Of a DNA stretch of 64,000 nucleotides, positions 13,636 through 26,872 are shown piece after piece. Within the stretch, counting starts at the first letter, position 1, and the number at the start of each line of letters is the position of its first letter. Origin of the DNA: a phage. The notes beneath the pieces were generated by a model. That model ran no database searches. It had not been told where the DNA came from and was given only the letters and a program-made list of their open reading frames with translations. The DNA is taken from sequence record PV808484.1; one strand, 5' to 3'. Made by a program: the position numbers and the translations under genes.

Positions 13636-13854
13636 TATTTTGAAAATTTTTATTTTTATAAAAAGGGGTGTGGGTTTCATGTACGGAAATCCACCCTCTG
13701 AATAATATATCCAGAGTAAGTATTATTCTGTACTCTGTTAATAAATTATTTAATTTGTTTGTTGGATTATGATATCTGGTTTTTAAAAGGCATACTATCT
13801 CTTAACTACTACTTATAACAGAACAGTAAAATCATTTTTATAAAAAGGACAAAA

Positions 13855-14051
13855 TTATTTAAAGTTTTTACAGATTTTTGGGTACAAATTTTGAAAATGA
13901 AAAGTTCAAGTTTGGTCAAAATTATTTAAAGTTTTTGTACGTATTTCCATCCAGATTTTGAAAATGAAAAGTTCAATTTTTTAAAAATTCCCCAGTTTAT
14001 TTAAAGTTTTTTTGCCTTTTTCCGTAGAAAAATCAAAAATGAAAAGTTCAA
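13855..14051. repeat. three imperfect tandem repeats (~67-73 bp) with two conserved boxes
   Basis: box A TTATTTAAAGTTTTT at 13855, 13923, 13997; box B TTTTGAAAATGAAAAGTTCAA at 13889, 13956, 14031. Confidence 0.6.
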
Positions 14052-14076
14052 TTTCGTGTTTTTATAGGTATGCGTA

Positions 14077-14190
14077 TGATAATCATTCTCATTTGTAAAT
14101 GAGAATCATTATCATTTAATTATGTAAGTGATAATCATTCTCAGTAAGAGAATGAGAATCATTAGCAAATGAGAATTTTCTCATTTAGAG
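14077..14190. promoter_or_regulatory. cluster of Fur-box-like palindromes
   Basis: TGATAATCATTCTCATT, AATGAGAATCATTATCATT, GTGATAATCATTCTCAG, AATGAGAATCATTAGC; compare Fur consensus GATAATGATAATCATTATC. Confidence 0.5.
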
Positions 14191-14447
14191 AATAACGCGT
14201 AGGGGTGGTGTTTGTCTCGCGCTCCCGTGTCCCCTCGCCATACAATAAGAATAGCATAACCAACAACAAAAGCAAGCGATTATTTTTATCTTTACATTTC
14301 TTTACAAATTTATTTTAGACGAGCTACCGGCGATCAACCTTCCAACCAGTGTGCCCTGGTATGTTAGCCCCGCCTTTACGCCGTGGGGGTGGCGCTTCCT
14401 CTTCTGTATGTAAAACAGTATAAGCCCGATCCCTGGGCTTGTCAAGA

Positions 14448-14714
14448 TTATTTTTTGTTTTCTTGCCAGGATAGGACACCTAACCAAAAATACATGTCGC
14501 CCCGCGCCCCTGGCGGGATCTTGCTTTCCCCGCCGCCACTGCAAGCCCATAGATAACCATTTGCGAACGTATCAAAATGATCTATTTCTTCCACCTTATG
14601 ATCGCCCAGGTTGAGAACGGTTTCAACCTTTAAGCCCGTTGCGCTTGCTACCTGGTGCACCGTGCCGCCTTGCCAGCCTAATGAGTGCATGAGGTGTAAA
14701 GTAGTATTTGTCAT
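14448..14714 (-). CDS. hypothetical protein (88 aa) in GC-rich segment
   Basis: internal ATG (MTNTTLHLMHSLGW...) in ORF-track frame; local GC roughly 50-60 percent versus 32-42 percent elsewhere; weak SD. Confidence 0.35.
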   Translation of the reverse strand: MTNTTLHLMHSLGWQGGTVHQVASATGLKVETVLNLGDHKVEEIDHFDTFANGYLWACSGGGESKIPPGARGDMYFWLGVLSWQENKK

Positions 14715-14824
14715 GGTATCGCCCTTTCTTTGATGTGCGCCCTGGTTGGCGCGGTAGAAAGATAATAGCCCCTTTCCTTTATAGATAGCAAGCAAAAAAG
14801 AAATGAAAAAAGATTAAAAAAGGG

Positions 14825-14853
14825 TTGACGTTCCTCACCTGGTAGCGTATTAT
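14825..14853 (+). promoter_or_regulatory. sigma70-like promoter
   Basis: TTGACG-17 nt-TATTAT. Confidence 0.45.
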
Positions 14854-14980
14854 TCATCTTGTCGAGGGGGGCGAGGCACAACGACAATAAACAAAAGGAG
14901 GGCGCAATGCAGGACGGGCAAAGGTGAGGATCTCCACAATCCACCGTCACAATAACATTACTTATAAAAGGTTGATAACG

Positions 14981-15076
14981 ATGATCAAGAAAGAAAACAG
15001 CTTGACGGTTGGAACGATTAACGCTATCATTTTCGCCGTTCCATTTTGGGTTGTAGTAGCGGTTATTATCTTTTAA
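14981..15076 (+). CDS. small hydrophobic peptide (31 aa), type I toxin-like
   Basis: MIKKENSLTVGTINAIIFAVPFWVVVAVIIF; about 120 nt leader containing a 6-codon mini-ORF (MQDGQR) with AAGGAGG SD. Confidence 0.35.
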   Translation: MIKKENSLTVGTINAIIFAVPFWVVVAVIIF

Positions 15077-15084
15077 AAATATTC

Positions 15085-15141
15085 TTGACAACGTTTTTTA
15101 ATCTGATAAGATGTATCACATAGGGCGGCAATAGTGCCGCT
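15085..15141 (+). promoter_or_regulatory. promoter plus 5'-UTR hairpin cassette
   Basis: TTGACA-16-TAAGAT then CATAGGGCGGCAATAGTGCCGCTCATA. Confidence 0.55.
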
Positions 15142-24725: not shown

Positions 24726-25109
24726 ATGAGCAATATCATCAACCTGGCAGCGACTGTAAACGGTAAAGACTTTAACGGCGCTGTAGACCGTGATCCTATG
24801 TGGTGCTTATCAGTGTTTAAAGGCGATCTGGTTGAAGTTAGAACAACCGAAGGGTATAGCGATGATTATAAATGCGAGATCCATTTACATAACTGGTACA
24901 CGGGGAAAACTTATGCGCTGAATCACGCGTTTATCGGGAAAATTGAATATCGCGAGATGATCGACGATGAAACGGGGCAAGATTTTAGTGATTATGTTTA
25001 TATTCGTTCAGAAACATTAGCCGAACGTTTGATCGAGAAAATGAAAGCAAAAAATAAAATTAATTTAGCTCATTGGCTTGATATAACAAATGATCCGGCT
25101 TACAAGTAA
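24726..25109 (+). CDS. hypothetical protein
   Basis: 127 aa ORF; GAGG SD. Confidence 0.55.
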   Translation: MSNIINLAATVNGKDFNGAVDRDPMWCLSVFKGDLVEVRTTEGYSDDYKCEIHLHNWYTGKTYALNHAFIGKIEYREMIDDETGQDFSDYVYIRSETLAERLIEKMKAKNKINLAHWLDITNDPAYK

Positions 25110-25124
25110 ATAACATTTCATACC

Positions 25125-25150
25125 AGGGCGCACAAAGCGCCCTTTCTTTT
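25125..25150 (+). terminator. rho-independent terminator
   Basis: AGGGCGC-ACAAA-GCGCCCT then TTCTTTTT. Confidence 0.65.
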
Positions 25151-25357
25151 TACCTAAATAAAGATGATAGCTTTTACCTATCAAAAACATTCACCGAAAA
25201 AAGTGAATAGATCGCGGTATCGAGCTAATCAAGGAGCAGATGAACAACCATACCATGAAGATCATAAGGCGCTTACAACGTGTTTTAAACCGCTTATTTT
25301 TAATTTCTCCATGTAACTATCTGGCAAAAACAGCCTTTTTCGTGTCTTTCCTCTTAA

Positions 25358-25430
25358 GTGATAATCATTCTTATTTATAGCTGATTATTTATGCAATAAA
25401 CTGCATAATGCAATAATGATAATCATTCTT
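25358..25430. promoter_or_regulatory. Fur-box-like palindromes
   Basis: GTGATAATCATTCTTA and AATAATGATAATCATTCTT; the latter 16/19 to Fur consensus. Confidence 0.5.
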
Positions 25431-25440
25431 AACTTATGAC

Positions 25441-25790
25441 CATCTAACCTATAAAATAATAAGTTATCTAACTAAATTAAAGCTAATTATTTCACCTTTA
25501 TTTATAACTTACTGTTACTATCTCATTGATAACCTTATATTAAACAACAATAACTAATATAAATCATTACTAAGCTAAATATAATCTATCTAACCTTTAA
25601 AACTATAACTATAATCTATCGAATTGTTGCACAAAGTAACTATTAAATTGTTAGTAACATTACTAAATAATTCATATCCTATCTATTTATGATCTAATCT
25701 TTACTTTCCTATCTATTACCTAAATAATCCTATCATACAGTTACCATTTCATGTAATAATCATTTCATACAATAACTATAACAAGAAATA
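25441..25790. repeat. G-depleted AT-rich low-complexity tract
   Basis: about 4 percent G on plus strand; degenerate ATCTATC / CTAACCT motifs. Confidence 0.55.
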
Positions 25791-25808
25791 TAATTCGCAA
25801 GCGTATCA

Positions 25809-25982
25809 TTAGCAGCCTATGCCGGACACATAGGCGGCTAATAATAACGCAACTACACACCCCACATAATAACCATCACCGATAGTTATTATTTGTGCTT
25901 ATGTAGCTTGCAACAATTGCAAGCGCAACAATATACATGGTATATTGTATCCCTTACATTGTTGCGGTGCGTTATTATTAGC
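25809..25982. repeat. nested inverted repeats (structured noncoding element)
   Basis: hairpin TTAGCAGCCTATG-CCGGACA-CATAGGCGGCTAA; palindrome GCTTGCAA-CAA-TTGCAAGC; 14-bp inverted pair GCTAATAATAACGC / GCGTTATTATTAGC. Confidence 0.5.
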
Positions 25983-26296
25983 TAATGTTTGGAACATTGG
26001 CTATAATATAAGCTAAATAATAAGCTATTCAATAATAAACATAATGAATAATGACACTGATGATCATAATGCGCCACCTTCCAGGGGGCGCTATGTGAAC
26101 ACAAAGAAATCTTTCTTGTCAAGAAAAATATTAACACTATTGCGCAAAATTATTTATGTCTGAATAGATGATTTTTCATACTATTGTTATTATTTATCGG
26201 CCCTAACTATTGCCTATTTGTTGAGCCTACTTTCTTAAAAGCGCAATAAATCAGAATTATCTTGATTTTTAGGGTGTTTTATAGTATAGAAAATAT

Positions 26297-26317
26297 GCAA
26301 ATGATAATCATTATCAG
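26297..26317. promoter_or_regulatory. Fur-box-like site (near consensus)
   Basis: GCAAATGATAATCATTATCAG; 16 contiguous matches to Fur consensus. Confidence 0.55.
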
Positions 26318-26481
26318 CTATCTTCCACGGGTGGCACTATTTCACGCAGGATCATTTCATTTGGCAAGGTGTATATAGATGTTTAGACTTGCCAAGCCAT
26401 TGATTTACTTAGAATTTATCTGTTTTGTTGTGAGTAGTACCTTTCTTGCTCAGAAAATAATCAAAAGTCTTATAAGTCATT

Positions 26482-26513
26482 GAATGATAATGCAAATGAT
26501 AATTATTCTCATT
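26482..26513. promoter_or_regulatory. Fur-box-like site
   Basis: GAATGATAATGCAAATGATAATTATTCTCATT. Confidence 0.45.
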
Positions 26514-26872
26514 GATATTTGAGGGGGACGGTCGGCAGAAATCGGGGGGCGCTGAAAATCGCGTTAAGCACCTCTCGCAAGCGAGCAGTATTTTGCGGCA
26601 AGTTATTGATATTATTGGCTTTACGCTTATGGAAAGGGGGTGTGTCGAAATAAATCGGGTATACCGGAAAATTTTTGTGGCATAGATATTTATTTGTCTA
26701 TATTATGTACAAAGGGGTGTGTTAAAAATATTAGGTATATATAGAATAATTGATAGGGAAATCCTATACTAATTCCTCCATTAATGATGTTTCTATGTTG
26801 CTGTTCTTGTAACAGATGAAAAGACGCTGTATGATGTGTAGCATGAAACGTAAATTTATAAAGGAGTCTGAT

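Follow-up and report, generated by a model that had tools for sequence, protein, structure and literature searches.

Replication origins primed by an R-loop have been described for plasmid ColE1, where RNA II serves as the primer, and for bacteriophage T4, where the transcripts of oriF(uvsY) and oriG(34) do so. At the genome ends of T7 and T3, Dunn and Studier (1983) reportedly described, as did Chung et al. (1990), a terminal repeat that is flanked by the SRL and SRR short-repeat arrays and associated with pacB, with its phiOR promoter, and with a hairpin processing intermediate. Here we describe a noncoding locus, positions 25441-25985 of a 64,000-nucleotide stretch of phage DNA (record PV808484.1; the whole stretch is called the window below), in which a strongly G-depleted tract adjoins a cluster of inverted repeats that form one conserved folded element. 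We tentatively read this locus, with a confidence that falls somewhat short of even, as the inner part of a noncoding control region at the right end of the genome, from which a leftward, minus-sense transcript would act in cis at the genome end. By sequence, the source of the window is a phi92-like Escherichia coli myophage (genus Justusliebigvirus, subfamily Stephanstirmvirinae), and the 1.7 kb surrounding the locus are 94-97% identical to Justusliebigvirus genomes.

Several of the described systems resemble this locus in part. Like the packaging RNA (pRNA) of phi29, which is about 175 nt long, the element would be a phage RNA encoded near a genome end, in which a 5'/3' closing helix leads through a three-way junction into two arms and a further domain is added at the 3' side. 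The phage differs from the protein-primed phi29 type, however, in being a myovirus with direct terminal repeats (DTRs) and conventional terminase packaging, and Rfam returned no pRNA hit. By-eye inspection found no complementary, covarying arm loops of the kind by which pRNA molecules join into a ring, the loops being, for example, CAU/GGU, AAUU/ACC and AGCU/AGG. As at the T7/T3 junction, the terminal repeat is short, and degenerate repeats together with inverted-repeat structure lie in unique DNA just inside the right-hand copy, where packaging requires the repeat to be duplicated. Unlike T7 and T3, this is a myovirus without a phage RNA polymerase, the structure folds on one strand as a three-way junction of 180 nt, the sequences are unrelated, and instead of regular heptamer arrays on both flanks of the DTR we observe irregular motifs on the left flank only.

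The inverted repeats and their common fold

The initial annotation had listed a hairpin with a 13-bp stem, a palindrome and a perfect 14-bp inverted pair, and all three are present. The hairpin lies at 25809-25841 (arms 25804-25821 and 25829-25846, 89% complementary), the palindrome, GCTTGCAA-CAA-TTGCAAGC, at 25906-25924, and the inverted pair proves to be 15 nt long (25837-25851 and 25968-25982). Rather than standing alone, these repeats are shown by covariation to be parts of a single conserved element of about 180 nt with one predicted fold. The element extends over 25803..25985 on the minus strand and is a candidate new noncoding RNA (covariance model R1; cmsearch score 163.6 bits, E 1e-38). 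In this fold, the inverted pair forms a closing stem of 14-15 bp (P1), from which two long irregular hairpin arms, arm A (about 25910-25965) and arm B (about 25852-25908), emerge in a three-way junction; a 3' hairpin, P0 (25815-25835), follows. The structure prediction that had been proposed as a check gave strong folding on both strands with both RNA and DNA parameters. The folding energy of 25795-25990 is better than that of all 200 shuffles on either strand, with z scores of −5.2 (plus) and −7.6 (minus) for RNA; the z scores with DNA parameters are −8.5 (plus) and −9.8 (minus).

When 21 distinct sequences are aligned, every helix displays compensatory changes. RNAalifold, applied to the minus strand, returned 45 pairs, none of them broken in any sequence and 13 with double changes, and each of the 21 homologues, when folded separately, gave one common architecture of P1, arm A, arm B and P0. 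In a model of 55 pairs, 95.7% of the cells are paired, rising to 98.3% after covariance-model realignment (24 distinct sequences); the realigned alignment leans toward the model, and the result before realignment is the same in kind. Sixteen of the 55 pairs carry double, compensatory changes. None of 500 column shuffles did as well, and a control in which the pairing partners were slid by 1-3 columns left only 25-52% pairing and at most five pairs with double changes.

The same comparisons alter the roles of the repeats that were first noted. Instead of forming its own hairpin, the palindrome has halves that pair with other, distal segments in arm A and not with each other, and its three apparent loop bases covary with a distal triplet (pairs 25/75, 26/74 and 27/73), with pair 26/74 occurring as A-U, U-A, G-C and G-U. 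Arm A is recovered without constraints by RNAalifold when the Justusliebigvirus rows are omitted, and with all rows included it outscores the hairpin of the palindrome by 6 kcal/mol. The hairpin at 25809-25841 is an extended form of P0 that competes with the long-range stem P1. The element has two conserved pairs of mutually exclusive helices, the extended 13-bp hairpin versus P1 (for GCUAA) and the palindrome hairpin versus arm A. Among the invariant single-stranded segments are GUCCG/UUCCC in the loop of P0 and CUAAU in the 3' tail. By-eye inspection of the homologous sequences supported neither hammerhead-like junction cores nor pairing of the P0 loop with the G-run in arm B as a pseudoknot. 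The likeness of the P0 motif AGCCTAT to AGCCTAC at the left end of the DTR was treated as chance, as the two do not covary in phAPEC8.

The imperfect pairs differ sharply between the strands. Counted over the model, the minus strand has 995 Watson-Crick cells and 110 G·U cells, versus 995 and none on the plus strand, where all 160 non-Watson-Crick cells are mismatches. Viewed on the plus strand, the imperfect pairs in the alignment of 21 sequences are all A·C or C·A, never G·U, and several of the G·U pairs on the minus strand are invariant (82/138 and 162/168, for example). In addition, the minimum free energy (MFE) of the minus strand, −72 to −82 kcal/mol versus −55 to −70 kcal/mol for the plus strand, is lower by 11-24 kcal/mol in 21 of 21 homologues. 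The fact that the non-Watson-Crick pairs are G·U on the minus strand and never on the plus strand identifies the minus strand as very probably the functional molecule. That it acts as RNA and not as single-stranded DNA is a less secure conclusion, which we consider probable; its folding advantage is 18-20 kcal/mol with RNA parameters versus 4.8 kcal/mol with DNA parameters. Of the structured noncoding RNA suggested at the outset, the structured nucleic acid is upheld by covariation, on the minus strand and in a different fold.

A sensitive search with 25380-26050 retrieved 133 phage records. Outside Justusliebigvirus, only about 25805-25928 of this span aligns, at ∼80% identity, with matches in, among others, Klebsiella phages, Citrobacter phage Tr1 and Phapecoctavirus members such as phAPEC8 and ESCO5. 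Six further divergent homologues came from scanning IMG/VR and metagenomes for patterns, with only Stephanstirmvirinae-like contigs proving real; three metagenome, five IMG/VR and 14 bacterial-genome pattern hits were rejected by the covariance model as chance. Model R1 finds a single copy in the window, its only strong match there, and one copy in each of the relatives (154-188 bits), in all of which the synteny of the element is fixed. A BLAST search of the element against 5,426 E. coli genomes gave no similarity, a tRNA/tmRNA search found none, and Rfam 15 yielded no hit inside 25441-25985 at E≤5 and no family at gathering score anywhere in the window. Neither a description of the element nor phage transcriptomes for this group were found in the searchable literature. 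That the element is a motif new to Rfam is well supported by these comparisons.

The G-poor tract and the terminal repeat

Directly 3' of the element in the minus sense lies the AT-rich tract (25441..25800; 78% A+T, GC skew −0.6), which is G-poor on the plus strand and C-poor on the minus strand. The depletion to about 4% G over some 350 bp reported in the initial annotation is borne out: of the 350 nt of 25441-25790, 15 are G (4.3%, next to 40.9% A, 17.1% C and 37.7% T), and this is the G minimum among all 350-nt segments of the 64 kb (mean 18.2%, sd 3.9). Its GC skew of −0.60 is ∼5.8 sd away from that of the surrounding plus-strand gene block (+0.126 ± 0.124). Because GC skew tracks the coding strand throughout this genome, the tract is the one strongly minus-sense-like segment within the plus block. 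The absence of open reading frames (ORFs) also held, with none of at least 40 aa between 25381 and 25981.

The degenerate motifs of ATCTATC and CTAACCT type first described here are real as short motifs, with ATCTA occurring eight times versus 1.5 expected and TAACTA five times versus 0.5, all of them degenerate and irregularly spaced. A direct-repeat search found no long iterons in the locus, the best families, of 28 nt (71%) and 22 nt (77%), being irregularly spaced. Nothing notable emerged for DnaA boxes, IHF sites or GATC clustering, and the only two one-mismatch DnaA-box matches in 1.7 kb both lie outside the locus. A classical origin, one of the earlier suggestions, is thus not supported, there being neither long iterons nor a DnaA-box cluster; the tract does have the AT-rich character of the unwinding element in iteron/DnaA origins (78% A+T over 360 bp). 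A weak 16-nt tandem repeat at 25723-25775 (AATAATCATTTCATAC, 3.3 copies, 67% matches) appears to be the "repeat_region" annotated in the inny, arall and muut records, as judged by offset from match start.

As RNA, the 360-nt tract has an MFE of −24.9 kcal/mol in the plus sense (−0.07 per nt) and −62.1 kcal/mol in the minus sense, neither of which differs from shuffles. A plus-sense transcript would be essentially structure-free, and C would exceed G by a factor of 2.6-7 in each of five successive 78-nt segments; a minus-sense transcript would be starved of C and would have more G than C, with G at only 17%. Between genera the tract cannot be aligned. In all related clades, however, the plus strand is G-poor with C>G over the 200-400 nt on the tract side of the element, where 100-nt bins contain 3-16% G, mostly 5-13%. 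It is the composition of the tract, and not its sequence, that is conserved in these clades. As adjacency and orientation are kept in all of them, we treat element and tract as one minus-sense unit.

The locus sits in an ORF-free gap of ∼1.7 kb (25110-26815). The phi92 record annotates a 343-bp repeat at each end (DTR-L and DTR-R), which has a single match in the window, at 26224-26566, with 98% identity over 343 bp. This single copy indicates that the window presents the genome ends in their collapsed, concatemer-junction form. A 342-bp DTR was determined with PhageTerm in the close relative BME3 (PMC12210895), and Stephanstirmvirinae genomes carry DTRs at their ends (PMC12695924). With the DTR mapped to 26224-26566, the locus is unique DNA 238-783 bp inside the right-hand repeat, with the end of the element 238 bp and the G-poor tract 424-783 bp from the DTR edge. 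The terminus or packaging site considered initially is therefore right as to the neighborhood, whereas the physical ends, as known from phi92 and BME3, fall outside the locus, 238 bp to its right.

The edges of the DTR homologue read GTTG/AGCC and GTTA/AGCAC (the slash marks the edge). Both edges (26220-26226 and 26563-26569) thus carry GTTR/AGC, and the homologous places in phAPEC8 read GTTG/AGCAC and GTTA/AGCAC, which makes GTTR/AGC a candidate terminase cut-site motif. Over the whole 1.7-kb gap, the islands common with phAPEC8 comprise the element itself, the block around the terminator, both boundaries of the DTR, the Fur-box-like sites and a short stretch upstream of the first gene (26683-26757).

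Possible modes of action

In the reading that we tentatively favor, a leftward, untranslated minus-sense RNA would start in the spacer between element and DTR (25986..26223), fold its 5' domain into the structured element and run on into the 360-nt C-poor, AT-rich tract with its excess of G over C. Rho would act poorly on such a C-starved tail, and an RNA-DNA hybrid could readily persist there. The most likely mode would be an R-loop by which leftward DNA synthesis is primed or licensed, or one that exposes the region so that the single DTR in concatemers can be processed, and host Fur would bind the terminal region at the Fur boxes that bracket the tract and lie within the DTR. In Justusliebigvirus, a promoter-like sequence on the minus strand of the spacer, TTGAAT-16-TATATT (26032 to 26005), ends 22 nt before P1. 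We put a cis role in replication or end processing, as opposed to a trans-acting RNA, at about an even chance. Unlikely, in our judgment, is the most specific version, namely a dedicated structured genome-end RNA of a hitherto undescribed kind that works in cis with its skewed AT-rich tail, starting replication or directing DTR duplication, in a terminal region wired through Fur to iron status.

This arrangement would resemble that of ColE1 RNA II and the T4 oriF and oriG transcripts, in which a folded, untranslated 5' domain precedes an easily melted region where the RNA can remain hybridized to its template and prime the leading strand. The alternative pairings of the element, with P0 opposed to P1 and the palindrome to arm A, are reminiscent of the way in which RNA II is controlled through its conformation. 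Unlike RNA II, the element has an AT-rich tail low in G and neither an antisense partner nor a Rom-like system, and it differs from both RNA II and the T4 origins in lying 240-800 bp from the end of a linear genome and in having no sequence or Rfam similarity to them.

A number of observations count against such a leftward transcript. No sigma-70 promoter occurs at a conserved offset upstream on the minus strand in other genera, and a terminator scan found no intrinsic terminator after the element on that strand. With its low G content, the minus-sense tract is not a classic G-rich former of R-loops. The modules with Fur boxes repeat directly in the plus orientation, so that they could be plus-sense promoters that fire into the tract, and plus-sense tract RNA, being G-poor, unstructured and richer in C than in G, would be suited to Rho loading. 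Model R1 has no match in the terminal gap of rV5 (Vequintavirus), from the sister subfamily. Finally, G·T is the best-tolerated DNA mismatch and the minus strand folds strongly with DNA parameters (z −9.8), which keeps a single-stranded DNA element among the candidates.

In that alternative, which we regard as doubtful, the minus DNA strand would fold into a Y shape when exposed, either as the lagging-strand template of a leftward fork or through a nick and unwinding of the AT-rich tract, and would serve as a priming site or fold-back primer that duplicates the DTR before terminase cutting. The fold is strand-specific and strong on both strands with DNA parameters, the adjoining tract melts easily, and no conserved promoter was found. 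Its position also fits, as the element lies close to the DTR edge and the concatemers of this phage must duplicate the DTR; a hairpin intermediate was reportedly proposed for T7 concatemer processing by Chung, Nardone and Hinkle in 1990. Depletion of C on the minus strand would be expected from cytosine deamination of a strand that is often single-stranded. Imperfect multi-hairpin structures of 100-200 nt on one DNA strand are known as single-strand initiation (ssi) signals from G4 oric, the phiX174 n'/PriA site, the M13 minus origin and F-plasmid Frpo, but these serve obligatorily single-stranded genomes or transfer intermediates, and the stems of the element lack an embedded −35/−10 pair. 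Conserved wobbles, like long irregular helices interrupted by internal loops, are found more typically in RNA, the structure lies 582 bp from the physical end and not at it, and the minus-strand advantage is only small with DNA parameters (4.8 kcal/mol, given above). We also count it against this alternative that we know of no nick site or hairpin end in this phage group.

Rather unlikely is a noncoding RNA of ∼180 nt that stands by itself and acts in trans, be it as a protein sponge, a host or phage regulator or an anti-defence RNA, and that lies near the terminus only incidentally. In that case the G-poor tract would be a separate entity, for instance a plus-sense, Rho-dependent stop zone that shields the DTR from transcription of the right arm. 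A compact, strongly covarying fold with invariant single-stranded segments is what such an RNA would offer. The tract in turn has properties of a rut site in its C/G ratio and lack of structure, and, as in rut regions such as lambda tR1, it is long, G-poor and situated after an operon end, just downstream of the operon terminator. The C content of the tract is merely average (17%) and not enriched as in rut regions, however, and use in the minus sense is what the genome-wide link between skew and coding strand suggests. There is no promoter and terminator pair to delimit a 180-nt RNA. Moreover, element and tract stay adjacent and in the same order in all clades while their surroundings diverge, which argues that the two work together.

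A region bound by protein as double-stranded DNA appears improbable. Here, the small terminase would recognize a pac site, or an initiator or operator array would be built of short motifs, these being ATCTA/CTATCT in the tract and, in the element, ATTAGC/GCTAAT and the operator-like palindrome GCTTGCAA..TTGCAAGC. The excess of ATCTA noted above would be accounted for, as would the enrichment of ATCTA or CTATCT in the Klebsiella-phage and metagenomic clades and the two to four copies of GCTAAT that several genera have close to the element, all on one strand; packaging signals would also fit the invariant 8-bp half-sites and the location at the terminus. What duplex sites leave unexplained are the 16 compensatory pairs, the covariation of the palindrome spacer and the asymmetry of G·U and A·C between the strands. 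The tract motifs are, in addition, short and irregularly spaced, and TGCTAAT, tried as a phage-specific promoter or motif and rejected, is not enriched in the window (14 found versus 14.7 expected).

A miniature inverted-repeat mobile element, for which the perfect 15-bp terminal inverted repeats around a 146-bp unit could speak, or a chance cluster of palindromes in AT-rich DNA, is effectively refuted by copy number (one in the window, none in E. coli genomes and none among the 14 bacterial pattern hits), by synteny and by the covariation of the internal helices, with folding z scores of −5 to −10.

If the dedicated genome-end RNA of the most specific version above is real, it would represent an RNA-dependent mechanism at a genome end with no described counterpart in tailed phages besides phi29 pRNA. 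Phages of the phi92 and phAPEC8 type are widely isolated and used in therapy cocktails, and the element, the tract conserved in composition only and the Fur boxes offer a concrete, mutable target for studying the replication, duplication and packaging of terminal repeats. If Fur does bind, host iron status would be linked to early events of a lytic phage.

Fur-box-like sites and neighboring features

Matches to a 19-bp Fur consensus with at most three mismatches number five in the window versus 0.03 expected. With the 7-1-7 motif, TGATAATnATTATCA, and matches counted at up to two mismatches, eight noncoding matches fall into two clusters, 14077-14167 and the terminal region, while a ninth at 14973 lies just outside. 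In the terminal region, these are two Fur-box-like sites with two mismatches each (25359-25373 and 25417-25431) to the left of the tract and, within the DTR, a perfect 7-1-7 match (26302-26316) and a match with one mismatch (26497-26511); a weak Fur-like site (26052-26066) lies in the spacer. Both DTR boxes are situated in islands conserved with phAPEC8, and a Fur-like box occupies the same relative place before the tract in phAPEC8, Wec190, KP2025, Tr1, L022, L027 and L028. These motif matches suggest that host Fur binds the terminal and early control regions of the phage. Between the two boxes directly left of the tract, we observe a small palindrome, ATGCA-N6-TGCAT (25390-25405); ATGCA-N6/7-TGCAT-like sites are also found beside the Fur box in phAPEC8 and KP2025.

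The other cluster, at 14077-14167, comprises four Fur-like sites spaced 23-29 bp and belongs to a second large ORF-poor region (13640-15100), which also includes a 67-bp tandem repeat (13850-13980 onward) and a GC-rich stretch (14200-14560). Neither strand of the latter folds in excess of expectation (z about 0), and GC skew is negative in the 350-nt segments starting at 14201-14301. The region 13640-15100 may be a regulatory or origin region.

On its left side, the ORF-free gap is bounded by the last protein gene of the right genome arm (24726..25109, plus strand), a homologue of phi92 gp248 that resembles T4 gp30.8; homologous coding sequences are annotated in phi92, inny and Paula, and tblastn leads to the T4 30.8 family. 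An intrinsic terminator at 25125..25143 closes this plus-strand operon (a 7-bp stem with six GC pairs, followed by TTCTTTTT, in the terminator scan); it is also annotated in phage Paula, and the block around it (25126-25254) is 82% identical to that of phAPEC8. A 46-aa ORF at 25240-25380 (MNNHTMKIIRRLQ...), preceded by an AAGGAG ribosome-binding site, is unannotated in inny and Paula and is kept within Justusliebigvirus only. To the right of the gap begin the first early genes. Their leader, from the DTR to the first of them (26582-26815), is C-poor on the plus strand with a skew of +0.35, the mirror image of the G-poor tract, and includes a 52-nt C-free run (26711-26762). This pattern fits C-poor untranslated leaders that leave the terminal region in both directions.

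In rV5 (NC_011041), a 2.6-kb ORF-free gap between convergent genes (record positions 104014-106617) contains a G-poor stretch (skew −0.55) without a homologue of the structured element, and for LL12, a relative of rV5, the DTR is reported in a similar noncoding region, flanked by a pair of transcripts that converge. Among the records related to the window, four labeled "Campylobacter phage" (A150, A145, C3 and A110a; MG065639/45/56/89) are ∼94% identical to this E. coli phage region, and the element in "Pseudomonas phage PsgM04F" (OR584014) is the same, letter for letter, as in E. coli phage phiWec190. These records bear host labels that look doubtful.

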